64,000 bases of DNA from Chitinophaga pinensis (GCA_945860565.1 CAMAQS010000002.1:1951-65950), one strand, 5' to 3'. Numbered from the stretch's first letter, positions 8,149 to 56,398 are shown. Notes: generated from the letters alone by a model not told the origin. A program made the numbers and translations.

Positions 8149-8164
8149 AGATAAGGGCGAACTA

Positions 8165-10035: not shown

Positions 10036-10169
10036 TATAGCATCGAATCAACAAAACAAATATCAACAGAATGAGTATTTAACGTGACAGTTGTGTTAAT
10101 TGTAGATTGCCTAAAGGTTTCTATGCCAACCGTTTGGTAATATTTTGATTGCATTTAAGAAATGAGATA

Positions 10170-11360: not shown

Positions 11361-11389
11361 AATTTCAAAGATATGAATTTAACCCAAAA

Positions 11390-12400
11390 TCAGGCAATCT
11401 GGTTGTTTTGTTTGAAGGGTTTTCGAATGATGTATAAATTTTTCTTTCGAAAACGATTCACATAATATTTAAATAAGAATAACAACCACTTTGATCGGGT
11501 GAAAATAACAAACGAATTTTTAACAGGAATTGCACCTAAAGTGCTTTTAATTTCAGTACCTGTTCTGCCAAGGTTTAAAATAGTTGCTTTCTCAGATATG
11601 GCGAAATCAACCAAATCAGACAACATTCTTTGATACAATTTGTAATTGGGGTCTAAGTGTTCATTCATGCCTAAATGCATGGCAAATAAATGTTTACCAT
11701 CGATGATGCATGTAATAAAACCCACCAATTGATTGTTTAGATAGTATCCGAATACCTTAAAGTTGGGACCAAGGGCTTTGTAATAACAATGCAGTAATTC
11801 CGGTAAATTTTTACCTACTGCGACGGTTTTTTTCTGGAGGGATTGGAATAGTAGCGAACCACAAGCAGCAATCCATTCGTTGGGAGGAAGGGTATGAAGT
11901 GTTCTTTTTTCGATGGATTTACTGTCTGAAAGAACTTTTTGTGCACGTACCCGGTATTTTGAGCTAAAATCTGCCAAATAATCCTCGTAATTATTCCAAT
12001 TGGGTCGAATTGGCAGTATCATGAATGGTTCTGCTTCTATGGTTACGGCGTCTGGATATTGTGAATACCCTAAAATATTGGCAACGATGAACTGGCATTT
12101 TACAGTTCCTGAATCGAATTGTTCCATTCCTTTTCCGGGTAACAATTGCGGGAAAATCAAACCTGGGGCACAGGCGTTTCCAATTGTGCGAATTATGCCT
12201 TTATTACTTATCGCATTAAACGTTTTTAACAGTAAACGATTTATGTGCTTTCCAGTGGGTCTGCTTAACTCCATTGCACTAGTTGGATAAGACTTTCCAT
12301 TTATTGAAATACCACCGGAATAATTTGGAAAAATGTGAAAAATTGACTTTCCTAAAGATTCATTAATTTCTTGAATAAGGGCATTGTTGTGATTTTCCAC
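11390..12400 (-). CDS. Hypothetical protein (FemAB/GNAT-like acyltransferase fold candidate)
   Basis: Coding-like 336-aa ORF; weak resemblance to the FemABX/DUF2156 family. No diagnostic motif. Confidence 0.3.
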   Translation of the reverse strand: MENHNNALIQEINESLGKSIFHIFPNYSGGISINGKSYPTSAMELSRPTGKHINRLLLKTFNAISNKGIIRTIGNACAPGLIFPQLLPGKGMEQFDSGTVKCQFIVANILGYSQYPDAVTIEAEPFMILPIRPNWNNYEDYLADFSSKYRVRAQKVLSDSKSIEKRTLHTLPPNEWIAACGSLLFQSLQKKTVAVGKNLPELLHCYYKALGPNFKVFGYYLNNQLVGFITCIIDGKHLFAMHLGMNEHLDPNYKLYQRMLSDLVDFAISEKATILNLGRTGTEIKSTLGAIPVKNSFVIFTRSKWLLFLFKYYVNRFRKKNLYIIRKPFKQNNQIA

Positions 12401-12510
12401 TGCTCAAAGGTCTTTCAGATATGCTGAATCACGAATTAAAATCGTTAGATATTACTATTTCATCGTTTATTTTTCATTTTGGGGGATGTATATTTTGTTA
12501 AGCCGCAACA

Positions 12511-14349
12511 GTGTCTATTTTTGTAAATATGTCAATTATTTCAAATAAGTGGTCTTTGGTTGCAATTGCAGTTTTTTCAATTCAATCCTTAAGTGCCCAA
12601 AAAGTGGTTAAAGGTTATCCTTTAGTTCAAAGGTTGAATAGTTTTAAAGAAATTACCTTAACAACAGATACTACCAAGTTAAGCGAAGCAGAAAAACGTT
12701 GCGTTATGTATCTCATAGAAGCTGCGAAAAGTGCGGATGAGATATTTTGGAAACAAACATACATGGCTAAAAAAGATGCCCTAAAGGGAATTAAAAACGA
12801 TACTCTAAAGCGTTTTTTGGAGATTAACTATGGGCCTTGGGATCGGTTAAATAACGACAAACCGTTCATGGCAGGTGTAGGCGAAAAACCCAAGGGTGTG
12901 AATTATTATCCAGCGGATTTTGATCCCAAAATGGTGACTGAAGACATTAAGGAAAGGGTTTTATCACCGTACACCGTAATTAAAAACTCTCCCAAAGTTC
13001 CTGTTGACCCTGGTAAAAATCCCCCAAAAGAAGGAGAAATGATGGCTCCAATGGAAATGTTTCCATTAAAAAATGGGAATATGGTAACTGTTGAAGACTT
13101 TGGATTTGCCTATAATAAAGATATGAGAGAGCTCATTGCTTCATTGGAAAAAGCTGCCGATGCCATTGAATCTGAAGATGCCAAATTCGCCCAATTTTTA
13201 AGAATGAGGGGGGGTGCAATTATGACCAATAATTTAGTTATGTCGGATATTGACTGGTTAAATTTGAATTCTCATTTGGATATCATTATTGGCCCTATTG
13301 AGAATTACGAAGATAAATTAACTGGGCAAAAAACCGCCTTCGAAGCATACGTTTTAGTGAGAGATGTTGAATGGGGTGAAAAATTGAAAAAGTACATTGG
13401 ATATTTACCGGAGTTGCAAGCGGGATTGCCTGTTGATGCTCCATACAAGCCTGAATTGGCAAAGAATGAAGAATTATCGGGTGTTGATGAAGGTGCAATG
13501 GAAATGATTGAAGAGCCTGGTTTTCCACCCATGCCCAAACCGAAATCGGCACTGAGTCAATTGGCTGTTTTTGATGTGGTGTATTATGGTGGGGACTGTA
13601 ATTCTGGGAGTAAAACCATTGCTGTGAACTTGCCAAATGATGAAACAATTCAAAAGTATTTTGGGACAAGAAGATCGCAGTTGAAAAATGCCATGAAGGC
13701 TAAGTTTGACGAAATTGTTATGCCTATTTCAAAGACCTTGATTGTTTCAAATCAACAAGCAAATATAAAGTTCGATGCATTTTTTGCCAATGTCATGTTC
13801 CATGAAGTGGCACATGGACTGGGTGTAAAAAACTTGGTTTCTGATGCAAGTAAAACCGTAAGAGAAGCATTGGGCCCTGATTATTCTGCTATTGAAGAGT
13901 GTAAAGCAGATGTTTTAGGACTTTATATGGTTACAAAATTGGTTGAAAAGGGCGAATTGTCTGGGAAATTAGATGACTACTATGTTACGTTTGTGGCATC
14001 TGTTTTTAGGTCTGTTCGATTTGGAGCTTCAAGTGCCCATGGTAAAGCAAATATGATTACGTTTAACACGCTTTTGAATAAGGGTGCTATATCAAAAGGA
14101 CCAAAAGGATATTCGGTAAACGTAAATGAAATGAAAAATGTAATCGGCGCATTGGCGGCTGAGTTATTGGTTCTTCAAGGAGATGGCAATACGAAGGGTG
14201 TTACAACAATGTTGAGCACACGTGGTGTTGTTACCGAGTATTTGAATGCTGATTTGGCAAAATTGCAAAAAGCAAATATCCCCGTTGATTTAATCTTTAA
14301 ACAAGGGATGAAAGCAATGGGGTTACAACGTTTAGAGTTAAATAAATAG
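12511..14349 (+). CDS. Secreted zinc metallopeptidase, M49 (DPP III)-like
   Basis: Signal peptide. HEVAHGLG (HExxH) followed by EECKAD resembles the M49 HExxGH...EECRAE pair. The true start may be the second ATG at 12529. Confidence 0.45.
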   Translation: MSIFVNMSIISNKWSLVAIAVFSIQSLSAQKVVKGYPLVQRLNSFKEITLTTDTTKLSEAEKRCVMYLIEAAKSADEIFWKQTYMAKKDALKGIKNDTLKRFLEINYGPWDRLNNDKPFMAGVGEKPKGVNYYPADFDPKMVTEDIKERVLSPYTVIKNSPKVPVDPGKNPPKEGEMMAPMEMFPLKNGNMVTVEDFGFAYNKDMRELIASLEKAADAIESEDAKFAQFLRMRGGAIMTNNLVMSDIDWLNLNSHLDIIIGPIENYEDKLTGQKTAFEAYVLVRDVEWGEKLKKYIGYLPELQAGLPVDAPYKPELAKNEELSGVDEGAMEMIEEPGFPPMPKPKSALSQLAVFDVVYYGGDCNSGSKTIAVNLPNDETIQKYFGTRRSQLKNAMKAKFDEIVMPISKTLIVSNQQANIKFDAFFANVMFHEVAHGLGVKNLVSDASKTVREALGPDYSAIEECKADVLGLYMVTKLVEKGELSGKLDDYYVTFVASVFRSVRFGASSAHGKANMITFNTLLNKGAISKGPKGYSVNVNEMKNVIGALAAELLVLQGDGNTKGVTTMLSTRGVVTEYLNADLAKLQKANIPVDLIFKQGMKAMGLQRLELNK

Positions 14350-19627: not shown

Positions 19628-19787
19628 AAGTTGGACATTACTGTGACAAATTTCCAATTTCTATACATAAAAATGAGTGATTTTCCTAGTAAAATAAAGT
19701 TGGTAAATCTTAGTTTTTTCGATAAACTTGCCAATTAATGCGTGGAACTTTTTCGCGTTTTATAGAATTAATAGAATACACGAACAT

Positions 19788-22700
19788 ATGAAGGATAAAT
19801 TACTCAGATTAGTATTTACAGCAGCGTTGGGATTGGTGTCCGTTTTTGCACAAGCACAAACCAACTTTGCAGATTTTCGCGTGAAAGCAAGCGATGGAGA
19901 TGGAAAGCCATTGAGTGGGGTGAACGTTAAAATGTATTTAAATGACATTTTAAAAACATCAGATACCACGGACAGTGATGGAAATGCCTTGTTTCAAACG
20001 TTAAACCCGGGAACATACCGTGTTGAACTGTCAAAAACTGGATTTTCTACCCAAAAATATGACGAAATGCAACTAAATGTGGGACTAAATGAGCCCTTGC
20101 AAGCTACCATGACAAATCAAATGGGTGCAGTAATCATTACCAAAAAGAGTACTGGTAAAGTCATAAAGCTGGAAAACAATGATGTCACCATGACTGGTGG
20201 AGCGGCAATTAATAGCGGTCGAAGAGGCATTGGTGCCATCACAGCAACCAATTCTGCAATTATTGAATCTAGACAAGGTATTTCTGTGAGGGGTACACGT
20301 TCAGATGGTAATGGAACATTCATCGACGGGATGAGAACTACAGGTTCCGGTGCAGTTCCTTCATTGGGTGTGGACCAGCTCTCCGTAAATATTGGGGGTA
20401 TTCCTGCCATGTATGGCGATTTAACAGGTGGTGCGTTTTCTTACACAACCAAAAGCGCTACAGAAAAAACGGTTACCATTTTTGAAGGCATTACTTCTAC
20501 TTTGTTAGATCCTTATGGGTACAATTCGGTTGAAGGTTTTATATCTGGACCACTTTGGACAAAAGAATATAAAAACGAAGAAGGCAAAACAGAAAAATTG
20601 GTAAAATTGGGGTATACACTTAACGGAAACGTAGGGTATTACAACGACCCTGATCCAACCAGAACGGGTGTATATGTTTTAAAAGAAGATAAATTAAAAG
20701 AAGTTGAAAACAATCCGTTGGTATTTACACCCAATGGGTTCGTTCACAGCGCATCTTATTTGAAGGAATCAGATTTTGAACGTTTGGCGGCCCGTCCTAC
20801 ATCTGCTCAATATAATGGCAACTTTATTGGTAAATTAGAGTTTAATCCAACGAAATACGTTTCAGTAACTGCATATTCAAGTTATTTTTATGGTGGAGGC
20901 CGTAACGCTACGAACTCAATCATGAACTTTAATGACAATGCCCGAACTGACAACCATACCTTTAGGGCTTACTTACAGTTCAAACAAACCTTTAAGGTGA
21001 AAAAAGAAAGTACCGTAAAAAGTGCCTTTTATACCATCCGTGCAGAATATCAAAATGCGTTTTCTCAGAGTAGAAGTGCAGAGCATTTGGATAACTATTT
21101 TGATTATGGTTATGTTGGAACTTTCCAATCTTACCCTACTCCAGTATTTGCCTATGCAAACTACGATCAACAACAGAATCCAAACAAAGAGCCACGTGTA
21201 GTGCGTGATCAAAACGGCAATTATGTTCAATTACGCAACTATTGGGATCAAATAGGATTTTCAGATACATTGTTAACTTTTAATGCAAGTGAATTAAATC
21301 CTATTCGTGCCCGTTATACTCAAAATATATACGATTATTACGATAGTCGCGGATTCAGAGTTGCAAGTCCACAAACGATTTTGTTAAGTCAGGGTATGTT
21401 GAATGGGTACAATCCGAATCCAGTGTATTCCTTGTGGGCAACCCCAGGAACCATTCCTAACGTTTGGGCTAAATCACAAACTGAAAAATATTCTGTTTTT
21501 GCTTTAGGACAAATGCAATACAAACCTAAAACTGTAAACGGAAGAGAAAGACCTCCACACGATTTACAAGCTGGTTTTTATTATGAGCAAAACATTAACC
21601 GCGGTTACAATCTAAATGCCAATGGTTTATGGGTGTTAATGGGGCAGTTAATGAACAAACACATTTCCGAATTAGATGTGAATAACCCAATTTTAAGTTA
21701 TGACGCAAACGGAGTGTTTACAGATACTGTGAGATACAATCGCTTAATAAACTATGGGGAACAGTCTAATTTTGACCGCAATTTCCGCGATAAGTTAATC
21801 TCACAAGGTGCCAAAGACGTTTATGGAAATTTGGTGAACGAAAGAACATTTGTGGACATCAACTCATTTAAGCCAGGAGATTTTAACATCAACATGTTCT
21901 CAGCAAATGAATTGTTGAACAATGGTAATGGTTATGCCAACTATTTTGGATATGACCATTTAGGTAATAAAGTGAACGGAAAACCAAGTATCAATCAGTT
22001 CTTGAACGATCCAAGTAAACGTACCATCGGTGCATTTCAACCCATTTACATAGCGGCTTGGTTGCAAGACCAATTTCAGTTTAAAGATTTGATTTTCCGC
22101 TTTGGTCTTCGTATGGAAAGATACGATGCCAACCAAATTGTGTTGAAGGATCCTTACAGTTTATATCCAATTCGCACTGCTGCTGAAGTGAAAAAAATTA
22201 ATGGTCTAGATGCAGTTCATCCTTCCAACGTTTCAGATGATGCCTACGTGTATGTAAACGACATGCAATCACCTACAAAAATCATTGGTTATAGAGAAGG
22301 TGATAAGTGGTACAATGCCGATGGTTCTGAACAAAGAAATCCAGAATTTTTAGCCAACCAAACTACCAACGGTAAAATTGCTCCCTATTTGGTAGATTAC
22401 AACAAACAAGAAGTAACTGATAAAACCTTTACCGACTATACCCCGGCCATTAATTTATTGCCCCGTATTTGGTTTTCATTCCCATTGGAACCTAAAAAGA
22501 AAACTTTCTACGTGAGTTATGATGTGTTGGCACAAAGACCAAATGCCGGTGCATCTTTTGTTTCTGTAGATGACATCTATTTCATGAAATTCCGTCAAGG
22601 TTCAACCATAGCAAATGGTTCCTTGGGCTCTCGTCTTAAAACAGATTATGAGGCAGGTTACAAACAAATTATTGGTAAAAAAGAGAATAAAGGTTTAGAG

Positions 22701-23537
22701 TTAAGTGTTGCGTATTCAGAAATTAGAAATGATTTTGGTTTGTATCAAATCAACCAAGGTTATCCTGTTACTTATACAACCTACAGAAACATCGATTTTG
22801 CTACCATAACCAGCTTTAGAGGTAATGTTTACATTCGCGATATTGGTCCCTTAACATTGTCTGCAAGTTATATGTTGCAGTTTGCGGATGGAACAGGTTC
22901 GAATATCAATTCACAGGCGGCATTGATTGCCAGCAATCAACCTAATTTGAGAACTGTAATTCCTTTGGGGGATTTGGATATTCGCCACAATATTAAATTG
23001 TCTTCTACTTGGGCTTGGGGTGGCGGACGCGATTTAAACCGCAAGAATTTATACAAAGGTCCAATGTTGTTTGGCAAGGAAATATTTAAATTTACAAGCA
23101 TCAATATCATTGCAAACACCTACAGTGGTGGACCATATACTCCAACAACCCGTGCGGTTCAAATTGGAGCAGTGGATAGAGCCCAAATTAAGGGTGTACC
23201 ATTTGGAGCGCGTTTGCCTTGGCAGTATAACTTCGATTTAAACTTTACCAAAGGATTCGAGTTGACCCGAAGTGGTGCAAAAAACCCTATTCAATTTAGT
23301 GTTTTCTTGTGGGTGAACAATGTGTTAAATACATGGAATGTATTGGGTGTATTCCCATTCACAGGACAGCCCAACGACGATGGATTCTTGAATTCACAAA
23401 ATGGGCAACTTCTTGTTAAAACGCAGGTGGATGCTCAAAGTTATACCGATTTATATCGCTTGTTTTTAAATTCTCAAACTGGCAACTGGAATGCTCCAAG
23501 AACCATCCGTTTGGGAGTGCGTTTTAATTTAAATTAA
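19788..23537 (+). CDS. Giant TonB-dependent-receptor-like outer-membrane protein (CarboxypepD_reg domain, plug, long barrel)
   Basis: Signal peptide (MKDKLLRLVFTAALGLVSVFAQA), a carboxypeptidase-regulatory-like domain (GTYRVELSKTGFSTQ), a plug-like ISVRGTRSDGNGTFIDGMR, then about 1000 aa rich in beta strands. Start moved to the internal ATG; the ORF track begins at 19728. Confidence 0.6.
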   Translation: MKDKLLRLVFTAALGLVSVFAQAQTNFADFRVKASDGDGKPLSGVNVKMYLNDILKTSDTTDSDGNALFQTLNPGTYRVELSKTGFSTQKYDEMQLNVGLNEPLQATMTNQMGAVIITKKSTGKVIKLENNDVTMTGGAAINSGRRGIGAITATNSAIIESRQGISVRGTRSDGNGTFIDGMRTTGSGAVPSLGVDQLSVNIGGIPAMYGDLTGGAFSYTTKSATEKTVTIFEGITSTLLDPYGYNSVEGFISGPLWTKEYKNEEGKTEKLVKLGYTLNGNVGYYNDPDPTRTGVYVLKEDKLKEVENNPLVFTPNGFVHSASYLKESDFERLAARPTSAQYNGNFIGKLEFNPTKYVSVTAYSSYFYGGGRNATNSIMNFNDNARTDNHTFRAYLQFKQTFKVKKESTVKSAFYTIRAEYQNAFSQSRSAEHLDNYFDYGYVGTFQSYPTPVFAYANYDQQQNPNKEPRVVRDQNGNYVQLRNYWDQIGFSDTLLTFNASELNPIRARYTQNIYDYYDSRGFRVASPQTILLSQGMLNGYNPNPVYSLWATPGTIPNVWAKSQTEKYSVFALGQMQYKPKTVNGRERPPHDLQAGFYYEQNINRGYNLNANGLWVLMGQLMNKHISELDVNNPILSYDANGVFTDTVRYNRLINYGEQSNFDRNFRDKLISQGAKDVYGNLVNERTFVDINSFKPGDFNINMFSANELLNNGNGYANYFGYDHLGNKVNGKPSINQFLNDPSKRTIGAFQPIYIAAWLQDQFQFKDLIFRFGLRMERYDANQIVLKDPYSLYPIRTAAEVKKINGLDAVHPSNVSDDAYVYVNDMQSPTKIIGYREGDKWYNADGSEQRNPEFLANQTTNGKIAPYLVDYNKQEVTDKTFTDYTPAINLLPRIWFSFPLEPKKKTFYVSYDVLAQRPNAGASFVSVDDIYFMKFRQGSTIANGSLGSRLKTDYEAGYKQIIGKKENKGLELSVAYSEIRNDFGLYQINQGYPVTYTTYRNIDFATITSFRGNVYIRDIGPLTLSASYMLQFADGTGSNINSQAALIASNQPNLRTVIPLGDLDIRHNIKLSSTWAWGGGRDLNRKNLYKGPMLFGKEIFKFTSINIIANTYSGGPYTPTTRAVQIGAVDRAQIKGVPFGARLPWQYNFDLNFTKGFELTRSGAKNPIQFSVFLWVNNVLNTWNVLGVFPFTGQPNDDGFLNSQNGQLLVKTQVDAQSYTDLYRLFLNSQTGNWNAPRTIRLGVRFNLN

Positions 23538-23554
23538 TTTAGAAAGGATTAGTA

Positions 23555-26500
23555 ATGAACATGAAAAGAACCGGACTTATATTGCTAGGATTAAGCATTG
23601 TCCAAATCGCTTTTTCTCGCCCAGTTGAAAATATCAAAGGGGTAGGAAAGAAAATTATTACAAAAAGAGCGGGTGCTTTCGCAAATACTTGTGATCCAGC
23701 TTCAGCTTCTGTGGATTTGGACATCAACAACGTGCGCACCAAGTTGCTCAATGGGGGTGATATGTGGTGGGATTTGAACAATCCCAAATACGAAATACCC
23801 AAGATTAGTGATCCAAATGCAGTAAGAAAACATTCTCTGTTTGCTGGAGCTATTTGGATTGGCGGAAAAGACAATGGAGGGAATCTTAAATTGGCTGCCA
23901 TGACATACCGACAGTTTGGATCTGATTTTTGGCCTGGGCCTTTGGACACAACCACTGCGGCAACAGATCCTTTGCGTTGTAAATCTTATGACCGCATGTG
24001 GAAGGTTACACGCGATGAATTGGAAGAGTTTGAAAATTCAAAATATTTAACACAAAGTGCGGGTATTCGAGATTGGCCAGGTGGAACAGACCGTGCTGTT
24101 AAAATTGGTGCAGAAGCGGCTTATTTGGCTCCCTATAAGGAAGTTGTTCAAGACATGGTTTACAATCCTTTTGATGGAGAACATCCTGTTCTAGATGAAC
24201 GCAGACCCAATGCAGACAATGGCGTGGATAAACAACCCGACATGTTTATTTGGTGGGTTTATAATGATAAGGGAAATATTCATACTGAATCAACTGGTCA
24301 ACCCATTGGTGTGGAATGTCAAACCACAGCATTTGCGTTTGCTACAAATGATGAGGTGAACAATATGACCTTTTATTCTACCAAAATTATCAACCGTGGT
24401 TTTACCACCTTGAACGATTGTTATATGGGACAGTGGGTAGATGCCGATTTAGGTAACTATGCCGATGATTACGTGGGATGTGATGTGGGTAGAAGTTTGG
24501 GTTTCTGTTACAATGGCGACGACGACGACGAAGGAGTATTAGGTTATGGATTGAATCCACCAACAATTGGTGTGGATTATTTTGAAGGTCCTACAGATAC
24601 TGCGGGCAATCAAATGGGATTGAGTCACTTTATGTATTACAATAACAACTCTGATCCTATTCAAGGGAATCCAGATAGAGCCAATCCAAATAGCTTTTAT
24701 AACTTCTTAAGAGGTAAATGGAAAGGTGGTCAGAATGTAACATGGGGCGGAAACGGTTTTGGTGGTGCACGTACAACCAACTATATGTTCCCCGGTTGCA
24801 CAGATCCGGCTTTTGCAGGTGAATGCTGGGATGAAAAATCTGCAGGAAATCCGCCTGCCGATAGACGTTTCATACAATCAACAGGTCCTTTTGTTTTAAA
24901 ACCGGGACAAATCCAACGCATCACTGTTGGGGTAGTTTGGGCTAAAACAACCTCGGGTGGTGCACAGGGGTCTTTGAATTTATTGAAATTGGCTTCAGAT
25001 AAGGCACAAACCTTGTTTAACAACAATTTTAAAATATTGGATGGACCAGATGCACCAGATATCGAGATTCAAGAATTGAACCAAGAATTGGTATTGAAAT
25101 TTTTGAATACCAATTCAACCAAAGTAGAAAATTATACCGAAAAATATAAAGATGCGAACAACCGTGAGTTGACGTATAAGTTTGAGGGTTATGTCGTGTA
25201 CCAATTGAAAGATGGAACAGTGAATACAGGTGATTTGGATAATATAGATAAAGCACGTTTGTTGTTCCAATGTGACGTTGAAAATAAGCGTGGACAAATC
25301 ATCAATCGTGTTTTTGATCCTAAACTGTCTCAACTTATTCCAGTTGAAAAGGTGGATGGAGCAGACAATGGAATTCAACATACGTTTAGCATCAAAAATG
25401 ATTTGTTTGCTACTTCTTCTAATACTTCGCTCATAGATTTTAAAAATTATTATTATATGGTTTTGAGTTATGCCATTTTATCGGATGATTCATTGCAAAC
25501 AGATCCAAATCAGTTTTTGGCTGGTAGAAGAAATATAGGTGTTTACAGAGCCACTCCACACAAAACGGAACCTGAAAACTTTGGTACGGAATTACAATCG
25601 GTGTATGGAAGCGGTCCAAGTTTAACCCGTATTTCTGGTAGAGGAAATGGCGGGATGTCCTTGGAATTTACAGAAGAAACAGTGAAAGAAATCCTTTCAA
25701 ACAATGTGGTTCTATTTCCTAAATATATTAACGGTGCTGGTCCAGTTAAAATAAAAGTGGTGGACCCATTGAAAGTGCCAAAAGCCAAATTTGAATTTTT
25801 CGTAAAAGAGAGAACGGCATCAAATTTCACAGCCTTAAGGGATTCAATGACATCAAATGCGGATTGGATTTTAGTTAAAAAAGGCGAAAATGGCAATGAT
25901 ACTATATTCTCAGATACCACATTGAAGCAACGTTTTGAAAGCGTACAAGGAAGGAGAAGTCTATATAATGCTACGAAAGAAACATTGGCCGATTGGGGAT
26001 TAAGTATTGAGGTAAATCAAGTATTTAATCCTGGTGAAAATGCCGCTGCAGACCCTTCAAATGGTGTGCTTGACTGGAATGTAGAATGGGAGGACAATGG
26101 CAGACAATGGTTAACTGCAGTTGTAGACAATGATGCTCAAAGTACTGCAACATCGGGTAGTATTTGGTTAAATTGGATTCGTGCTGGAAATAATGGTAGA
26201 GGTGTTAGCCCATTGGATGGTTATATTCATGACTTTTTCCAAAGCGACGGAACAACGCCATTGGATCCAGGTCAGGCATTTGAACGTATTTGGAATGGTC
26301 GAATTGCGCCTTACGGATTAACCGCTCGTGAAAAATACAGTTCAGTAGCTGGCAGAAACACATTTGGTTTTGCATGGTCAGGCAATACGTCTTGGTTGCA
26401 GAATCCTTTGGCTGAAATCCACTCTTTTGAATTGGTTATTACCAAGGATAAATCAAAATGGACCCGTTGTCCTGTTCTTGAAATGGGTGATGATGAAGTG

Positions 26501-27484
26501 AAAAACTCTACTGAAGGCCAAATGGCTAAATTCAATATGCGTTTGGCTACCTCAAAAGATAAAGATGGAAACGACATTCCTGGCAGCCAAGGTTTGAGCT
26601 ATTTCCCCGGTTATGTTATCAATTTGGAAACCGGTGAACGCATGAACATTGCATTTAGTGAAGACAGTTATTTGGGTGGCGAAAATGGTCGTGATATGAT
26701 TTGGAATCCAACAGATGTAGTTATCAACGACAATGGAAATTATCCAGCCATAGGTGGAAAACACTTCTTATATATTTTTGGAAGTGGTAAAGGTGGTATA
26801 ACCCGCAACATACAAGGGGAAAGATATATGGGCGAAAGCGAAGCTAGTTTTGATAGATTCAAAAAAGGATTGCAATCAACCACTCCAGGTGGGGCACCTG
26901 CGAATCTTGAAAAAATTAGAATGATGTCTCAAGTAACATGGGTTATACCAACCTACTTGGCTTCTGGTTATTCCATGAAAAATGGTATTCCTCCAACAGA
27001 TGTTAAAATCAAAGTACGTGTGCGTAAAGCCTATACAAACTTTGAAACAGGTGATGACAGAAATGCCGTTAAAGATGGAAGTGGAAATGTTCGCTATAGT
27101 TTGCCAATGTATGAGTTTGACGGAGCGGAAATTGCACCAAAAATTGGAAATGACATTGAAACCAAAAACTTGGATCTGGTGAATGTTGTTCCCAATCCTT
27201 ATCGTGGGTACAGTAAATACGAAAATAGCCCTATCGATTCTAGGGTGAAAATCACCAACCTACCACCAGATTGTACCATTACAATCTTTGATATGGCTGG
27301 TAACCTTATTCGTAAGATCAATAAATCGGATGAGTTCACTTATTATGAGTGGGATTTGAAGAATAACAGCAACGTTCCAATTGCGAGTGGTTTGTATTTG
27401 ATACACGTTAAAGCACCAAATTTGGGAGAAAAAGTTGTTCGTTGGTACGGTATTATGCACGCAGTAGATTTAGACACCTATTAA
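23555..27484 (+). CDS. Large (1309 aa) secreted protein with T9SS type A C-terminal sorting domain; PorU-like role possible by synteny but catalytic motif not seen
   Basis: Signal peptide. The C-terminal 90 aa (VVPNPYRGY...ITIFDMAGNLIRKI...SGLYLIHVKAPNLGEKV) fit the Por_Secre_tail pattern. Lies 17 nt after the upstream gene and 4 nt before the PorV-like gene. Confidence 0.5.
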   Translation: MNMKRTGLILLGLSIVQIAFSRPVENIKGVGKKIITKRAGAFANTCDPASASVDLDINNVRTKLLNGGDMWWDLNNPKYEIPKISDPNAVRKHSLFAGAIWIGGKDNGGNLKLAAMTYRQFGSDFWPGPLDTTTAATDPLRCKSYDRMWKVTRDELEEFENSKYLTQSAGIRDWPGGTDRAVKIGAEAAYLAPYKEVVQDMVYNPFDGEHPVLDERRPNADNGVDKQPDMFIWWVYNDKGNIHTESTGQPIGVECQTTAFAFATNDEVNNMTFYSTKIINRGFTTLNDCYMGQWVDADLGNYADDYVGCDVGRSLGFCYNGDDDDEGVLGYGLNPPTIGVDYFEGPTDTAGNQMGLSHFMYYNNNSDPIQGNPDRANPNSFYNFLRGKWKGGQNVTWGGNGFGGARTTNYMFPGCTDPAFAGECWDEKSAGNPPADRRFIQSTGPFVLKPGQIQRITVGVVWAKTTSGGAQGSLNLLKLASDKAQTLFNNNFKILDGPDAPDIEIQELNQELVLKFLNTNSTKVENYTEKYKDANNRELTYKFEGYVVYQLKDGTVNTGDLDNIDKARLLFQCDVENKRGQIINRVFDPKLSQLIPVEKVDGADNGIQHTFSIKNDLFATSSNTSLIDFKNYYYMVLSYAILSDDSLQTDPNQFLAGRRNIGVYRATPHKTEPENFGTELQSVYGSGPSLTRISGRGNGGMSLEFTEETVKEILSNNVVLFPKYINGAGPVKIKVVDPLKVPKAKFEFFVKERTASNFTALRDSMTSNADWILVKKGENGNDTIFSDTTLKQRFESVQGRRSLYNATKETLADWGLSIEVNQVFNPGENAAADPSNGVLDWNVEWEDNGRQWLTAVVDNDAQSTATSGSIWLNWIRAGNNGRGVSPLDGYIHDFFQSDGTTPLDPGQAFERIWNGRIAPYGLTAREKYSSVAGRNTFGFAWSGNTSWLQNPLAEIHSFELVITKDKSKWTRCPVLEMGDDEVKNSTEGQMAKFNMRLATSKDKDGNDIPGSQGLSYFPGYVINLETGERMNIAFSEDSYLGGENGRDMIWNPTDVVINDNGNYPAIGGKHFLYIFGSGKGGITRNIQGERYMGESEASFDRFKKGLQSTTPGGAPANLEKIRMMSQVTWVIPTYLASGYSMKNGIPPTDVKIKVRVRKAYTNFETGDDRNAVKDGSGNVRYSLPMYEFDGAEIAPKIGNDIETKNLDLVNVVPNPYRGYSKYENSPIDSRVKITNLPPDCTITIFDMAGNLIRKINKSDEFTYYEWDLKNNSNVPIASGLYLIHVKAPNLGEKVVRWYGIMHAVDLDTY

Positions 27485-27488
27485 TTTT

Positions 27489-28607
27489 ATGCTGATGAAA
27501 AAAGTTTTTAAAAATATAAAAATTGCAAGCTTGGGTTTATTGCTTCTAGGCACGAACATGGCTTATGCTGGAAACCCTGAAAGACAAGGTCAAGCAGGGG
27601 TGGCTCAATTGACCATAAATGGTTGGGGTCGTTCAAGTGGATTTGGTTGGGCAAGTGGAGGTAGAGTTACAGGTGCCGAAGCAATGTTTATGAATGTTGG
27701 TGGATTAGACCGCATGGAAAATAAGACTGAACTAGTTTTTGCCCGTACAGAATGGTTAATGGGTTCTGGAATTGGAATCAACAATTTGGGTTTCGGAATA
27801 AAAATGGGTGAAGATGGTTCCGCTGGTACCTTGGGTGTGCAAGTAATGCAATTTGGTATTGATCCAATTGAAATTACTACTGAAGAGAATCCTTACGGTG
27901 GTATTGGAACTTATAGAGTTAACATGACCAACATCGGCGTTTCTTACAGTAAGAGTTTCAGTAATAGCATTTCTGCAGGTGTAACTGCCCGCTTGGTTTC
28001 AGAAGGCATTCCGGATGCAAGTACTTCAGGTTTTGCGCTTGATGCCGGGGTTCAATACACCACTACATTGTTGCCAACTGCCAATAAATTGAAAAGAAAT
28101 GACTTTAAGTTTGGAATTTCAATGAAAAATATTGGTCCAGATTTGTCCTATTCTGGCGATGGCTTAAGTTATAAAGCCTTAATTCAGAATGGTACTTATG
28201 AGAAAACGATTCAAGTAAAAACAGACGTAGTTAAGTTGCCCGCATTGTTAAATATTGCCGCTTCTTATGATTTTAGATTGGATTCTGATCCCAACCAGTA
28301 CGACAATAAATTGACGGTAGGTTTTGGTTTTACGAACCATTCTTTTAGCGCAAACCAAACGACACTCTCAGTGGAATACGATTATAAGAAAATGTTGAGT
28401 ATACGCGGTGGTTACTGTTATCAAGATGGAATCCTTTCAGAAGACACAAGAACATCAGCGTTTACTGGGCCTTTCGCTGGAATTAGTTACGACTGGCACG
28501 TGAATGATGAGAATTTAGTGTCGTTGGATTATAGCTACAGAGCGACAAATCCATTTAATGGAGTTCATTCTTTTGGGATTCGTATCGGATTAGGTAAAGC
28601 AGAATAA
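27489..28607 (+). CDS. porV: FadL-family outer-membrane beta-barrel, PorV (LptO)-like T9SS shuttle protein candidate
   Basis: Signal peptide. N-terminal AGNPERQGQAGVAQLTINGWGRSSGFGWASGG...AMFMNVGGL matches the FadL/PorV N-terminal hatch pattern. Glycine-rich amphipathic strands; about 372 aa. Confidence 0.5.
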   Translation: MLMKKVFKNIKIASLGLLLLGTNMAYAGNPERQGQAGVAQLTINGWGRSSGFGWASGGRVTGAEAMFMNVGGLDRMENKTELVFARTEWLMGSGIGINNLGFGIKMGEDGSAGTLGVQVMQFGIDPIEITTEENPYGGIGTYRVNMTNIGVSYSKSFSNSISAGVTARLVSEGIPDASTSGFALDAGVQYTTTLLPTANKLKRNDFKFGISMKNIGPDLSYSGDGLSYKALIQNGTYEKTIQVKTDVVKLPALLNIAASYDFRLDSDPNQYDNKLTVGFGFTNHSFSANQTTLSVEYDYKKMLSIRGGYCYQDGILSEDTRTSAFTGPFAGISYDWHVNDENLVSLDYSYRATNPFNGVHSFGIRIGLGKAE

Positions 28608-28631
28608 GAATTTTATTATATTTGTAAATTG

Positions 28632-28668
28632 GTTGCATCAATACTTCAATTGGTGCAACTTTTTTTTT
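28632..28668 (+). terminator. Rho-independent terminator after the PorV-like gene
   Basis: An 11-bp stem with one mismatch (gttgcatcaat/attggtgcaac), followed by T9. Confidence 0.45.
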
Positions 28669-28703
28669 AACATTTTAACCATTTAAACAGGAAGGAAAAT
28701 TTT

Positions 28704-31732: not shown

Positions 31733-32272
31733 ATGGCAATAGAAAACCATACCAACGAGAGGGAACTTGTAGAGAATTGCGTAAAAGGAGTGAAGTCCGC
31801 ACAAGAAGCATTTTACCTACAGTTTTCTGGTGTTTTGTTTGCAATCTGTCTTCGATATTCAACGGACAATGAAATGGCCCAAGATATGTTTCAAGATTCA
31901 ATGATAAAAATATTCCAAAAGCTTCGAGATTTTCGATTTGAAGGTTCTTTGGAAGGTTGGCTTAAAAGAGTCTGTGTAAACCATTGTTTGGATTCTCTTA
32001 AACGGAGTAAAGCAAAATTTAATGAATCTATCGATGAAGCCCATTCGAATATAGAGTCTGAATTCAAAACCGATTCACAGATTCAAATGAATCAACTAAT
32101 GGACTTGCTTCAAAGATTGCCTGTCGGATACAGAACAGTATTCAACCTCTACGCCATTGAAGGATACACGCACAATGAAATAGGAGTTTTATTGGGGATA
32201 TCTGAAAGTACAAGTAAAACGCAGCTTTTTAAAGCAAGAAAATGGTTACAACAATATTTAAATCATGGGTAA
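31733..32272 (+). CDS. ECF-type RNA polymerase sigma-70 factor
   Basis: Region 2 (FQDSMIKIFQKL...WLKRVCVNHCLDSLKR) and region 4 HTH (YTHNEIGVLLGISESTSKTQLFKARKWL). Confidence 0.8.
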   Translation: MAIENHTNERELVENCVKGVKSAQEAFYLQFSGVLFAICLRYSTDNEMAQDMFQDSMIKIFQKLRDFRFEGSLEGWLKRVCVNHCLDSLKRSKAKFNESIDEAHSNIESEFKTDSQIQMNQLMDLLQRLPVGYRTVFNLYAIEGYTHNEIGVLLGISESTSKTQLFKARKWLQQYLNHG

Positions 32273-33380
32273 TCCAAATGAATCAAATATAGACAACTTG
32301 TTCAGAAATGAATTGGGTAAGGCATCGGTGCAACCCCCAGCTCAACTATGGGCAAATGTTTCCAGTCAAGTTGGGACCCATTCTGCTGCTGCACAAACTG
32401 TTGCAGTGAAAGCTACTGTTAGTTCAGTTAAAATATTGTCTTGGATAGCCGCTTCGGTCGTTTCCATAGCTGCAGGAGTTGTAGTTTACAATCATTTGGG
32501 AGAAAAAAACATCCCCCAAAAAACAAAAGAAACGACTCTTTCTAACCCAAGTCAGAATATTTCAGAAAAAGCACAGTTGACATCCCCCAAAACTGAAAAA
32601 GCCGAAGGAATAAAGTTTGCTAAACCAGCACCACCGCTGCCTGATTTTTCAAGAAGTGTGTTTTTCAGAAGTTTGCCGAATGACAATGTTGAATCTCAAG
32701 GACAAATGGGTAAAGTTTTATCAGACGAATACGTAAAAGTTAATACTGAAAATCAAGGAGTAAATAACCAGATTAAGGATAACGAAGTCTCCCCAATATT
32801 TGCGAATTCTGCGAAAAATAATTCGATAAAATGCCGCGGTTATTACGAAAAAACAATAACCCAACCTGCAGAAAATGCAGTTGAAATTGGAATAAGCGGC
32901 TTAAAAGGAGAATACACTGTAGACTTCGGAAATGGTAAAACTATGAAGAGTTCGGGTGAAATGTTAACCTTTAAGTGTGAGTATTATGTAAGATCTGCGC
33001 AATATTTCAATGTGAAAATTGGAGCAAAAATGGATGGGCTTTGCAATGATTCCCAAATGGTGAAGGTTTTTGTTCGCCCTAATGAAGATGAAAGTCAAAC
33101 CTTAATTCCCACAGTCTTTACTCCAAATGGAGACGGCAAGAACGATTCATTTTTTGTTCGGATTATACGTCCAGAGAAATTCGAACTGGTTGTGATTGAT
33201 TTAAAGGGTTCTATTGTTTTTAAAACCAATGAATTAAATCACAAGTGGGACGGTAAATACCAAGGGGTAATGTGTAAGGAGGGTGTGTACAGTGCAATTA
33301 TTCGAAGCCAGTATTCAGGAGAAAATAAAGAAAATATTCAAAGAGTTAAAGTGAATTTAATGTATAATAACAACGATTAA
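32265..33380 (+). CDS. Bitopic anti-sigma-like membrane protein with extracytoplasmic PKD-like + CHU_C (T9SS type B C-terminal) domains
   Basis: The start overlaps the sigma gene stop by 8 nt. A roughly 55-aa hydrophilic N-terminus, then one transmembrane helix (ILSWIAASVVSIAAGVVVY). A PKD-like YTVDFGNGKT. The C-terminal LIPTVFTPNGDGKNDSFFV...GVYSAII... is a CHU_C/gliding-associated CTD. Confidence 0.5.
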   Translation: MGNPNESNIDNLFRNELGKASVQPPAQLWANVSSQVGTHSAAAQTVAVKATVSSVKILSWIAASVVSIAAGVVVYNHLGEKNIPQKTKETTLSNPSQNISEKAQLTSPKTEKAEGIKFAKPAPPLPDFSRSVFFRSLPNDNVESQGQMGKVLSDEYVKVNTENQGVNNQIKDNEVSPIFANSAKNNSIKCRGYYEKTITQPAENAVEIGISGLKGEYTVDFGNGKTMKSSGEMLTFKCEYYVRSAQYFNVKIGAKMDGLCNDSQMVKVFVRPNEDESQTLIPTVFTPNGDGKNDSFFVRIIRPEKFELVVIDLKGSIVFKTNELNHKWDGKYQGVMCKEGVYSAIIRSQYSGENKENIQRVKVNLMYNNND

Positions 33381-33516
33381 CTTAAGCAAAATAGTAAGAA
33401 AAGAAATTAAAATTATGAAACAGTTAGATAAATATCAAAAAATCCTCAGGCCAAATGCTTTGGCTTTATGGAGTAAATCGCCTATTTTTGAAATTTTACA
33501 ACCCAAATTAGAAAAT

Positions 33517-36500
33517 ATGAAAGGATTGTCCTTGTTAATGAAAGGTTTAATGGTGGTGCTTTTTACCACTGTTTTTTCGGTGAATGATGTATTGGCGCAG
33601 ACTTGTGTGATTACGTATGACGGTTCTGCCTGTGTGGGTGTTCCTATTCGTTTTACGGGTTCTGCCTCTGGTACCGGACACGAATGGACCTTTACAGATG
33701 GTGGAGTAGACAACAAAACCAGTGGTACAGTAAATGTAAACTTTGCCTTTAAAACGGCGGGTACAAATAAAGTAACCTACATTACAACAGTAAATGGAAC
33801 TAAGTGTACGGCAACTTTAAACATTACAATCAAAGAGAAACCAGAAATTAAATTAAACATTATTACATTAGACAGTCAATGTTTTTTGAACAACCTGTTT
33901 TGTTTTACAGACAGCACCAAAAATAAGAATGGCGCAAAGATTGTAAATACCAAATATGTTGTTTCTGATGGTCAGTTGTTTGAATATGATTTTCCACCAT
34001 CAGTGATGCCAAATCAATTGTGTTTTTCAATTCAAGACGTAAGAGGTGGTTCATTTGACTTATATACTGAAACAGTAGACGAAAATGGTTGTGTAGATAC
34101 CATGAACTGGAAAGGTGCTGTATTTGTTCGCGAAAAAATTGGTGCGGCATTTACAAGTAACAAACCAGTACAATGTGATAGTGTACAAGCCAAAATTAAA
34201 AATGTTAGTAGAATTAGCCAAAGTGCAGTGAAAAGCATTATTTGGTATTGGGGGGATGGTTCAACAAGTACCGAATGGGGTCCAGATATTAACAAATGGT
34301 TTTATGGACAAGGTGTTTATGATTCCAAAATGATTATAGAAACCTATGATGGATGTAAAGATTCATTTAAAATGTCAGCGACTGCTACTGTATTCCAGTC
34401 TAAAGCTCGAATAATAACCGATAAAGATTCTACTTGTATTTCTGCACCCGAAATTAAATTCTCTGTAAATGTGGTACCATCAGGTGCTTCTGGATTGTTG
34501 TGGAATTTTGGTGACCCGAATTCTGGTCCACAAAACACTAATGTCAGAACATGGTCTCCTGCTCACTCATTTACAGGCTTAGGCCCATTTTTGATTCGTT
34601 TGTCTTATACGCATCCAATTTGTGGTCCACAAGAGGCATACGATACAATTATTATATTGGGACCCTCTTCAGGCATTGAAGCGGCCTTCCAAAGAGTGCC
34701 AGATTGGCAAGTTTTCCAGTGTCCAAAGGACATCATGGATACGGTATTCTTTACCCGAAATTTATCAACTTTTTACCATAACGACCACGATTATACCGAC
34801 GACGATAGTACGTTCTACAAAGCTGGGGGTTCTGCATTGGGTCATAATTTCCAAAAGGCACCAAATGGTAAACCCATTCAAATTTGGCAAAAGCCTTTGC
34901 GCAATGAAAAGAATCTCAATGGAACATCAACTGTTTATGCAGGCGGAACCATTGCACCAGGTGGCGGAAATGATGCATTAAAACGTGAACGCGTTTGTGC
35001 CACTCGACTATGGGATTTTGGCGATAATTTTGGTTCGAAATGTACGACGGATATTACACGAAACAAGAATATAAATGTAAACTGTGCGTTTTCTCATGAT
35101 TCCACACCTTTTCACTATTATAAGTCATGGGATTTGGTGTTGTTATCTGATTTCAAGAGTGCTCCAATGGAAGATGCAATCTTTATAGACAGCAACGGTT
35201 TATGTAAAAGAGTAAATATTTTCCCTGATACATTTTTCTATATTTTTTATGATACAATCGTTACCATTCCTCAAACGGCTGCGGATAGTGCTGATTATTT
35301 AGCCAGTGGAATAAAAGGAATTGCTTCATACAAAAAAGAGAAGGTGTTTAAAGGAAAGGGTGAACGCTTCATGGAAGACTTTGTGATAATGAGACTTCGC
35401 GCCGGTGACACTGCATGGGTGAGTCCTGTAGGGGGATCTGGTTATTCTCGATTAATTGGTCCAAGGGATACATTGCTAAGACCAAAACAAACTGTTCAAT
35501 TGCGTTCTGATGGAGATTGGGCTGAATTTTTATATACTGTGCATTTAAAGAGAGATACTTTACCTAAAGCTGTATATGGAATACGCACGGCTAAAGGCGA
35601 AAAACCGAATATTATTGATTCATTTAAACGCATTCCTCAAGGAAAAATGGGCTTTGATTATTTTATTAATTATAACAGATGGAGACAATTGTACTATGCA
35701 AGAATTCCAGCATGTAACAATGTGAAATTAACACACAAAGATACTTGTCACCCATTGAAATGCGAAAGTGAAGCAATTAAACAACTTTCTATGCTACACG
35801 CCAATGCGGGTGGTGTTGGAAGTGGATTGATTAAAGACGCGGTAGAATGTTTGGGTTCTCAAAATCCATCCTATGGTGTTACATTTATATTGAGTGATTT
35901 GAAACCGGGATGTACTTTCACCGATGTTCAAATAAATTATGATACTTTTTGTGATCCGAATGCATGGGTAGGTTTGGCTGGATTGTCTCCAGGAGGCAGA
36001 CCTTTGAATCCTCCATTGCCATTCTGGAATACAGGTTACCAATTGGCAGGAAATCCTCCAAGTAGATATTCTCAAACGTATAGCCCATCTGCAGTGTGTA
36101 ATACAGCAACAGGTTGCGTTACCGTAGGTATCATTGTTGGTAATGGTATTGCTAAACCAGGTGGGAATAACGCTAAGCGTCCATTGTGTCAAGATACTCA
36201 GTACTACGATCGATTTGCTTGTTTCCCATTAATAGATACAGATTTTGAAATTGTAACACCTTTGAAAAATGCATTGGGTGATTATAAAATTTGTAAGTGG
36301 GATGAAATTATAGCAAGACCGATTAAAAATAATAAAACCAAAATTCGTGATTTGAAATCATTGCGTTGGTTGTTGCAAACCGGTGATGCTGCGCCAACTT
36401 GGTCTAGAAGCTGGAATACCTACATACAAGAAGATTATTTCCACTACCAAGATAAGGTTCCTGGAAAAAATCCAAAATACTTATACAACTATATGGTTCA

Positions 36501-40987: not shown

Positions 40988-41108
40988 ATTCGTAAAAATA
41001 GTCTTTTTGAGAATACCAAACCAACTGTTTTCATTTTCTTGATTAGATTGTCCAAAATCACTGACACTAATTTCGTGAGATTCACATTCTAGCTGTAACT
41101 TTGTTTGA

Positions 41109-56293: not shown

Positions 56294-56398
56294 AATATTT
56301 TATTTCAAATTTATAAATTGGCCACCTTTTGGTGGCCTTTTTTGTTTCTTTTGGGGGATATTTTTCGAAGATTAAATTTTGTTTTGTACCTTTTCAAA

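Follow-up and report, generated by a model that had tools for sequence, protein, structure and literature searches.

Outer-membrane transporters of Bacteroidota normally operate with surface partners (PMC12611786), and some proteins exported by the type IX secretion machinery (T9SS) are held at the outer membrane by barrels: in Porphyromonas gingivalis, PorZ and PorU keep their C-terminal domains uncleaved and bound to the 14-strand barrels PorQ and PorV (PMC10202324). Here we analyse a locus in which a transporter gene stands next to a pair of genes of this second kind. It comprises three consecutive plus-strand genes at positions 19,788 to 28,607 of a 64,000-nucleotide stretch of DNA (the window) from an assembly titled Chitinophaga pinensis (GCA_945860565.1, CAMAQS010000002.1:1951-65950). 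Gene 1 encodes a TonB-dependent-transporter-like outer-membrane protein, gene 2 a large secreted protein with a T9SS-type tail, and gene 3 an outer-membrane barrel of the PorV/PorQ family; together we call them the trio. Our preferred reading, held tentatively and with slightly less than even confidence, is that gene 2 is a T9SS-delivered, barrel-anchored surface partner serving the TonB-dependent transporter.

Gene 2 and gene 3 resemble PorZ-PorQ and PorU-PorV in that a protein predicted to be exported by the T9SS, with a type A-like tail, is paired with a barrel of the PorV/PorQ family, and PorZ has the tail that comes closest to the one of gene 2. However, the body of gene 2 lacks similarity to PorZ or to PorU and peptidase family C25, gene 3 fails the equivalog models of its family, and the pair shares its operon with a TonB-dependent transporter, a component absent from the attachment complex. 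Seen from the transporter, the trio is comparable to SusC/SusD, BtuB-BtuG and XusA-XusB, where a CarboxypepD_reg transporter is likewise encoded beside a large surface-exposed partner; the Bacteroides thetaiotaomicron transporter-lipoprotein complexes 8bmx and 9gbc are among the fold matches of gene 1. Unlike SusD-type partners, gene 2 has neither a lipobox nor a SusD-like domain and comes with a T9SS-type tail and a barrel gene of its own, and unlike SusC and RagA, gene 1 has no NCBIfam match and no utilisation-locus enzymes or regulators nearby. Type B cargo with its PorP/SprF barrel, as in sprB-sprF of Flavobacterium johnsoniae, offers a further likeness, namely a cargo-specific barrel for a large cargo; a PorP/SprF-like barrel is often encoded next to the type B cargo gene, with the barrel gene immediately downstream. 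In contrast to that pair, the tail of gene 2 is type A-like, gene 3 falls in the PorV/PorQ family, and a transporter is part of the unit.

TonB-receptor-like proteins have also been connected with PorV: PorF (PG0534) and its Cytophaga hutchinsonii homologue CHU_1606 are linked to it functionally or by co-immunoprecipitation (PMC8564354). PorF is about 91 kDa and reported without a plug, whereas gene 1 has 1249 amino acids (aa) and a canonical plug, which sets the two apart by their descriptions (PMC8564354). A layout identical to the trio in order and annotations appears in the Fig. 2 legend of PMC9530828, where the alginate locus of Rhodothermus marinus contains tonB-hypA-hypB, encoding a TonB-dependent receptor (2805 nt), a T9SS type A protein (2181 nt) and a PorV/PorQ protein (1056 nt). 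The Rhodothermus genes belong to a polysaccharide utilisation locus and encode much smaller proteins, the likeness being one of order and annotation, and in that paper they are drawn without comment and are uncharacterised. A figure legend on hmu gene clusters of Porphyromonas species (PMC12106395) includes T9SS type A sorting-domain and PorV/PorQ genes and does not state their positions.

Our literature searches found no paper analysing the trio and no functional study of a PorV paralogue next to a transporter. A preliminary description of the locus had proposed that a dedicated PorV-paralogue system for one large cargo, coupled to a plug-containing barrel, would be new. That holds insofar as no such paper was found; the components themselves (transporter, T9SS cargo, PorV-family barrel) belong to known kinds, and cognate barrels for retained tails have been proposed before. 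The trio is thus a large, conserved and uncharacterised outer-membrane module, and its mechanistic surprise is hypothetical.

Operon structure and synteny of the trio

Gene 1 (19788..23537) encodes 1249 aa, gene 2 (23555..27484) 1309 aa and gene 3 (27489..28607) 372 aa, all on the plus strand. The mechanical open reading frame (ORF) of gene 1 opens with a TTG at 19728; N-termini of orthologs align with the ATG at 19788, from which we number the protein. Spacers of 17 nt between gene 1 and gene 2 and of 4 nt between gene 2 and gene 3 confirm the co-directional arrangement given in the preliminary description. The terminator that it placed behind the trio is also there, as an intrinsic-terminator-like hairpin at 28631..28670 (plus strand) with a 12-bp stem and a 6-nt loop (28631-28660) followed by a run of eight T downstream of gene 3. 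With these gaps and the single terminator, the trio has the structure of one operon; a sigma-70 promoter scan gave a signal no higher than shuffled expectation. Each protein begins with a Sec-type signal peptide (aa 1-23 in gene 1, 1-21 in gene 2 and 1-26 in gene 3), and none has a lipobox cysteine, as read directly.

How widely is this arrangement kept? GTDB species genomes were scanned for relatives of gene 2, and at least 586 of them carry a confirmed one. Without exception, the best 80 of these relatives belong to assemblies of uncultured Bacteroidia, Flavobacteriales and Chitinophagales type, in many cases from lakes or rivers. When 91 related loci were compared for neighbours, gene 1 was found directly upstream of gene 2 in 76 of 80 informative loci, and in 77 of 82 the next gene downstream was gene 3; most of the misses are artefacts of distance criteria, and only two loci, L068 and L078, are true exceptions. 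The flanks are conserved as well, with a 2-hydroxyacid dehydrogenase gene before the trio (57/63) and greA after it (72/76), usually together with HIT. The arrangement of the trio is far beyond chance.

The trio is retained down to 33-39% identity, in every distant representative sampled, and gene 2 keeps 46-50% identity across orders with hundreds of invariant sites. The five distant gene 2 representatives sampled from an exhaustive search (37-46% identity, 1248-1687 aa) are each followed by a gene of 350-400 aa where gene 3 would be expected. Upstream of them stands an ORF the size of gene 1, provided that the contig extends that far, and in three of the five the unit is followed by greA. 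Pairwise distances among the trio proteins correlate with r of 0.86-0.955, versus 0.47-0.82 with flanking genes, and at 0.6-0.875 once the housekeeping trend is removed. This co-variation weakly favours coupled evolution, the control genes being short and hence noisier.

Both true exceptions are solo paralogues of gene 2, at 7932-11753 of L068 (chromosome OZ244977.1, 47% identity) and at 7989-11861 of L078 (46%). Their tails are present, their neighbours are unrelated, and no transporter or PorV-like gene adjoins them. Chromosome OZ244977.1 holds a full trio (L065) in addition to its solo copy, and just upstream of the solo gene in L078 there is a small generic cargo of type A. Several public assemblies with a clearly Bacteroidota locus (for example L004, L007, L021 and L031) bear the titles 'uncultured Rhizobium sp.', 'uncultured Bifidobacterium sp.' or 'Chitinophaga pinensis', and such titles are unreliable as taxonomy.

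Gene 1 as transporter, gene 3 as barrel

Behind its signal peptide, gene 1 carries a CarboxypepD_reg N-terminal extension domain at aa 35-109 (19890..20114, plus strand; PF13620, 42.6 bits against a cut-off of 32.3), as the preliminary description had recognised; the motifs it quoted are likewise all present, at the positions given here for each of the three proteins. The domain is followed by a hydrophobic strand, GAVIITK (aa 113-119, 20124..20144, plus strand), which by position and pattern is a putative TonB box: V/I-rich strands of this type (AVIITK, EVVKK, PVVIR, KVVVR and similar) fall at one alignment position, at the boundary between N-terminal domain and plug, in 22/22 orthologs. The core plug motifs, from ISVRGTRSDGNGTFIDGM at aa 165-182 to GGIPAMYGDLTGGAFSYTTKS, span aa 165-223 (20280..20456, plus strand). 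Their patterns, ISVRGTR..G..FIDG and GG(I/V)PA(M/Q)YGD.TGG, are conserved among aligned orthologs and correspond to the Plug matches of distant homologues at approximately aa 133-222.

CarboxypepD_reg is the sole Pfam or NCBIfam match of the window protein, whose plug and barrel the models miss; NCBIfam searched at E<=0.01 gave zero matches, hence no SusC/RagA and no T9SS component model, and a PDB sequence search with gene 1 returned nothing meaningful. We assign plug and barrel because distant homologues pass the models and the predicted structure matches. Full-length homologues of 1212-1252 aa at 31-35% identity pass the Pfam Plug model, two of them also TonB_dep_Rec_b-barrel, and these proteins belong to the same trio, followed by greA and HIT. 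An AlphaFold2 (AF2) model of aa 114-1249 built with 29 sequences (pLDDT 83, pTM 0.80) matched exclusively TonB-dependent transporters in a Foldseek search of the PDB, among them PfeA, PhuR, Cir, FepA, BtuB and the Bacteroides BtuB and XusA complexes, with E-values of about 1e-22 to 1e-18 and TM scores of 0.6-0.78 normalised to the shorter targets. According to DSSP, the model consists of a plug and then about 22 long strands, with large inserts in the barrel at model residues of roughly 388-445, 498-640 and 668-773.

The plug-containing barrel of the preliminary description therefore stands by way of distant homologues and the structure comparison, while the Plug and TonB_dep_Rec models themselves miss the window protein. 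Its word 'giant' was too strong: gene 1 has a normal plug and roughly 22 barrel strands, extended by long loops and by a domain at the N-terminus. Gene 1 is accordingly best described, from its predicted fold, as a genuine, long TonB-dependent transporter of Bacteroidota architecture with enlarged loops, and not as a new barrel class. We also considered a Sov/SprA-like translocon, which the plug and the 22-strand transporter fold rule out.

In gene 3, the signal peptide is followed by AGNPERQGQAGVAQL and AMFMNVGGL at aa 27-73. The PorV/PorQ family model NF033709 matches at 116.1 bits (cut-off 90) over model positions 2-324 of 326, and it matches 27/27 orthologs; the PorP model makes weak contact in only two of these 27. 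Scores for the equivalogs fall far below their cut-offs, at 56 of 250 bits for PorV (NF033710), 37.2 of 220 for PorQ (NF033711) and 36.5 of 325 for PorV2 (NF052325). The 27 orthologs give the same picture, and NCBI names orthologs 'PorV/PorQ family protein'. These scores mark gene 3 as a separate paralogue within the family, distinct from PorV, PorQ and PorV2, and full-length family homology predicts that it folds as a FadL-like barrel of 14 strands. A search of the PDB with the ortholog profile found a single significant chain, F. johnsoniae PorV (6h3i_F, E 7.8e-11), and no FadL or BamG chain. Of the FadL/PorV type proposed at first, the PorV side has thus held up, while the FadL side has not: gene 3 has no match to Toluene_X/FadL (PF03349) in Pfam at E<=0.01. 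The FadL-like subunit of the BAM complex is BamG, BamP being periplasmic (PMC12611786), and an identity of gene 3 with BamG was rejected since the profile search found PorV instead.

A fragment of F. johnsoniae PorV, searched against the window and 1.55 Mb of related loci, retrieved gene 3 orthologs only, at 23-27% identity, and no canonical PorV. Among the scanned ORFs of the window (a subset of those of at least 150 aa) there is no canonical porU, porV, porQ or porZ and no other T9SS machinery gene.

Could the three genes be mere neighbours with no functional link? In that case gene 3 might be a generic channel of the FadL type, for hydrophobic compounds, or a subunit of the BAM complex like BamG, and gene 2 would be T9SS cargo of an ordinary kind, an adhesin or an S-layer-type protein. 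Large T9SS cargo of a size similar to gene 2 does include S-layer proteins. The 14-strand fold, moreover, is common to PorV, FadL and BamG (PMC12578637, PMC12611786). Against this stand the missing Toluene_X/FadL match, the profile search that finds PorV and not FadL or BamG among PDB sequences, a synteny that is near-invariant over deep divergence, and a gene 2 far too conserved for a typical exposed adhesin or S-layer protein. We consider this explanation very improbable.

Tail and body of gene 2

The C-terminal domain of gene 2 (aa 1205-1309, 27167..27481, plus strand) is predicted, from its matches to TIGR04183 and the PorZ model, to be a divergent, PorZ-like T9SS sorting domain of type A. 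VVPNPY, ITIFDMAGNLIRKI and GLYLIHV are all found within aa 1211-1285. The Por_Secre_tail-like end named in the preliminary description stands at the level of the family, where 11 of 12 orthologs match TIGR04183 at E<0.01 (best E 4e-6); the window protein itself stays below the thresholds of TIGR04183 (20.7 bits versus 23) and of Pfam Por_Secre_tail (PF18962, 14.4 versus 27). The tail at family level supports the prediction that gene 2 is exported by the T9SS. The PorZ model (NF052228, two beta-propellers and a tail, cut-off 260) gives 32.7 bits (E 2.8e-8), confined to positions 668-750 of 757, which is its tail, and nine of the 12 orthologs match this same part; the PorU model is touched by two of the 12, at E of about 1e-3 and in the tail region alone. 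Consistent with this, PorZ (5m11, residues 688-745, E 0.06) is the sole T9SS protein among the weak PDB matches of a profile built from 21 gene 2 tails.

An in-genome control is provided by a 790-aa protein encoded at 61588-63960 (minus strand) of the window, with a strong generic type A tail (TIGR04183, 49.5 bits). The gene 2 tail profile matches this generic tail only marginally (E 0.08), and the PorZ model matches neither this cargo nor the generic cargo of locus L078. The window thus encodes type A cargo as well as type B tails, and therefore the organism has a type IX secretion system.

What distinguishes the tail of gene 2 is its conservation. Identity of orthologs to the window sequence is 62.5% in the tail versus 31.7% in the linker before it, so that the tail is conserved on a par with the protein core and twice as strongly as the linker. 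Its 105 residues include 31 near-invariant sites, with a mean column identity of 70%, and orthologs hardly vary in the DLD(S/T)(F/Y) that forms the extreme C-terminus. We conclude from these comparisons that it is probably a specialised type A-like sorting domain, nearer to the retained tail of PorZ than to a generic tail. Conservation at the level of the core fits a domain with a permanent partner and suggests a lasting interaction, as opposed to a discarded signal. By analogy with PorZ and PorU, the partner that holds the tail is probably the gene 3 barrel.

These properties of the tail bear on a simpler possibility, in which gene 3 would serve only as a private carrier from the translocon: the tail would be cleaved, gene 2 would be an enzyme released or anchored to lipopolysaccharide (LPS), and the transporter would import its products without any stable complex. 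PorV is a shuttle for type A cargo according to work cited in PMC12578637, and type B cargo commonly requires a PorP/SprF-like barrel (PMC10202324). Gene 2 also looks enzyme-like in its many invariant acidic, aromatic and histidine residues, and its fold weakly echoes glycoside hydrolases and phosphorylases in what we read as the beta-sandwich domains that accompany catalytic domains. However, the tail, including its invariant extreme C-terminus, is conserved beyond the needs of a disposable signal and is unlike the generic cargo tail of the same genome, and neither the PDB fold search nor Pfam recognises a catalytic domain in gene 2. We judge cleavage and release of gene 2 to be unlikely.

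The body between signal peptide and tail (aa 22-1204) is beta-rich and, by our searches and the AF2 model, belongs to no known family. Pfam at E<=1 on 12 orthologs yielded only tail models and no SusD-like domain, and PDB sequence searches with the protein and with its profile found no relative; indeed, no curated model in Pfam or NCBIfam (June 2026) names either gene 1 or the body of gene 2. The family is nonetheless large. A word-indexed search brought up more than 6208 relatives. Of the top 120, nearly all match over the full length, at 48-98% identity; most are nameless and the others are called 'hypothetical protein', with the exception of one ortholog that nr lists as a T9SS type A sorting-domain protein. 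Only one of the 120 has a precomputed Pfam domain. With the body alone, an exhaustive search gave 7355 clusters at 50% identity with E<=1e-3, 2364 of them with E<=1e-30. Ten distant representatives looked up by cluster were all 'hypothetical protein' from metagenome-assembled genomes, and no cultured carrier was found among these ten.

The AF2 model of the body (aa 22-1204, 44 sequences) has a pLDDT of 83.4 and a pTM of 0.67 and is mostly beta. Compared with the PDB it gives weak partial matches only (E 9e-5 or weaker, query-normalised TM of at most 0.18). The proteins matched are glycoside hydrolases and phosphorylases (GH116, GH94 and relatives), and we read these matches as probable shared beta-sandwich topology and not as homology. 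Sequence conservation along the body is high but patchy, peaking at aa 61-120 (NNVR..LNGGDMWWDL), at 241-330 (W.D.DLGN..DDYVG.D .. YNGD..DEG..GYG.NPP) and at 1017-1053 (FPGY..N..TGER......EDS.....NG.D..WNPT). The most conserved element is an acidic block, WVDADLGNYADDYVGCD ... YNGDDDDEG, at aa 294-327 (24434..24535, plus strand), which is near-invariant in 42 orthologs; the sliding-window maximum of conservation, 0.87, falls at aa 301-330. The patchiness suggests candidate binding or catalytic sites, and the acidic block is a candidate metal- or ligand-binding site.

One variant of gene 2, at 7861-12924 of locus L089, is 1687 aa long and includes an extra region matching PSII_BNR, a BNR/propeller-type family; the gene 2 body therefore tolerates domain insertions. 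The context of this variant is the usual one of dehydrogenase, transporter, gene 2 and PorV-like gene.

With tail and body in view, the first of the two options in the preliminary description, a divergent porU-porV locus with gene 2 as the sortase and gene 3 as the general PorV shuttle, can be largely discounted. Order and sizes do mimic such a locus, with a tail-bearing protein of about 1300 aa followed by a PorV-like protein of about 370 aa, and neither the 64-kb window nor the 1.55 Mb of related loci showed a further porU or porV; the sampled DNA is, however, a tiny fraction of each genome, and the missing canonical pair says little. Neither Peptidase_C25 (PF01364) nor PorU (NF033707) matches gene 2 of the window, and outside the tail there is no C25 or PorU signal. 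In aligned orthologs the invariant His and Cys residues of gene 2 have no His-Gly or Ala-Cys context, in line with the failure of the preliminary description to find a catalytic dyad, and no gingipain, PorU or PorZ structure is among the listed PDB fold matches. Gene 3, as given above, reaches 56 bits where PorV requires 250. We therefore see hardly any chance that this is the canonical pair.

A proposed composite outer-membrane machine and its surroundings

The second option has a dedicated PorV paralogue serve a single large T9SS cargo, next to a barrel with a plug, and it agrees with all that we found, including the family model matched by all gene 3 orthologs and the synteny. We extend it as follows. 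The three genes, as one operon, would build a composite outer-membrane machine, with gene 1 as the TonB-energised transporter. Gene 2 would be exported by Sec and then, by means of its C-terminal domain, by the T9SS; this domain would stay uncleaved and be captured by the dedicated gene 3 barrel, as PorZ is on PorQ and PorU on PorV. Gene 3 would in this way tether the gene 2 body of about 1180 aa at the cell surface, beside or over the transporter, where the body might bind or process a ligand and pass it to gene 1 for TonB-dependent import. The arrangement would be a functional equivalent of SusC/SusD, in which a T9SS-delivered, barrel-anchored partner replaces the lipoprotein. The analysis shows the fold or family to which genes 1 and 3 belong, that gene 2 has a T9SS-type tail, how the operon is built, and how strongly sequence and synteny are kept; the scheme infers that the tail is retained and bound by gene 3, that there is a physical link to gene 1, and which way and for which substrate transport runs. 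Several precedents are consistent with it: a review proposes that tails of this kind escape cleavage because cognate PorV-like barrels protect them, and it presents the PorP/SprF proteins as barrels similar to PorV that are deployed for specific substrates (PMC10202324), and in Cytophaga hutchinsonii a TonB-receptor-like PorF homologue co-purifies with PorV (PMC8564354).

A number of points weigh against the idea of a transporter with a T9SS-delivered partner. The trio is flanked by housekeeping genes (2-hydroxyacid dehydrogenase, greA, HIT, ruvC), and near it there is no regulator, glycoside hydrolase or inner-membrane transporter, all of which would be expected at a nutrient-uptake locus; these are the main arguments against nutrient uptake. 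High conservation and an apparent single copy would also fit a role in envelope biogenesis or as a T9SS accessory, and the solo paralogues demonstrate that gene 2 can be encoded without adjacent partners. The ligand-capture role of gene 2 is a guess and the TonB box of gene 1 a pattern match only. The three-protein complex is a proposal from sequence and from models of single proteins, and tail retention is not something that can be read from sequence.

A rival reading is an accessory or envelope-maintenance module of the T9SS, with gene 1 as a PorF-like, gene 3 as a PorV/PorQ-like and gene 2 as a PorZ-like, tail-retaining component, serving secretion, cargo attachment or the handling of surface glycans or LPS, and not import. 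The PorZ-like tail speaks for such a module, as does the PorF homologue, described as a TonB-dependent receptor, that co-purifies with PorV (PMC8564354). The trio also stands among housekeeping genes, apparently in single copy across very divergent genomes, and in two distant loci OmpH-OmpH-MurI lies a few genes upstream. Yet gene 2 resembles the PorZ model in its tail only, its body giving no match there, and it has no PorU match, gene 3 fails both the PorQ and the PorV equivalogs, none of the NCBIfam T9SS component models matches gene 1, and gene 1 has an intact canonical plug and a TonB-box-like strand where PorF is reported without a plug (PMC8564354). On balance we find an accessory role improbable, and the reading of gene 2 as a surface partner of the transporter is the one we carry forward.

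Should that reading be true, PorV-family barrels would also be modular anchors, able to make T9SS-delivered proteins fixed subunits of other outer-membrane machines, and Bacteroidota would have a second route, besides surface lipoproteins, to give TonB-dependent transporters extracellular partners. A bolder generalisation is conceivable, if somewhat doubtful: that many environmental Bacteroidota assemble a core machine for uptake or processing at the outer membrane in a previously undescribed manner, in which the partner of a transporter comes from the T9SS and is held permanently by a private PorV-family barrel on an uncleaved domain, that this partner family (about 1300 aa, thousands of clusters) has an unprecedented fold and activity, and that the design recurs with other cargo in utilisation loci of related phyla, for instance in Rhodothermus. 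The gene 2 family deserves attention in itself. With no Pfam domain, no solved relative and 7355 clusters, it is among the larger unannotated families of the phylum, fixed in a housekeeping neighbourhood of abundant, mostly uncultured freshwater and marine lineages. It raises the questions of what sets cleavage or retention of a T9SS tail and what role a non-canonical PorV paralogue plays.

Upstream of the trio, the window encodes an S41 tail-specific protease, a biotin carboxylase and the 2-hydroxyacid dehydrogenase; downstream follow greA, the HIT protein, lgt, holB, an ECF sigma factor and then two proteins with type B T9SS tails. G+C content in the window ranges from 32 to 42%, the trio does not stand out as a compositional island, and Rfam and tRNA scans of the window gave no matches. 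The OmpH-OmpH-MurI block, which in Bacteroidota usually follows bamA, lies at 2852-4873 of L001 and 2927-4903 of L002, just upstream of dehydrogenase and trio; the upstream part of the window differs.

Several observations concern other parts of the window. At 31733-38988 (plus strand), the gene of the ECF sigma factor (31733-32272) overlaps by 8 nt that of a 371-aa protein whose N-terminus weakly matches anti-sigma factors (19.5 bits) and whose tail is of type B (CHU_C 50 bits; TIGR04131 33.9 against a cut-off of 35); it is unusual for an anti-sigma-like protein to have a secretion tail. The next gene, at 33415-38988, encodes 1857 aa, again with a type B tail. Farther on, the ORF of a formate-tetrahydrofolate ligase (39323-41170, minus strand) overlaps the start of mnmE (41109-42488, plus strand) by about 60 nt; the ligase model begins to match at residue 62, which makes it probable that the true start lies downstream and that the overlap is an artefact of ORF calling. 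An acetaldehyde dehydrogenase and an HMGL-like aldolase with a DmpG-type communication domain form a pair at 53620-55567 (plus strand), which is followed by a 214-aa ORF and then, at 56318-59737 (plus strand), by a 1139-aa glycoside hydrolase of family GH92.

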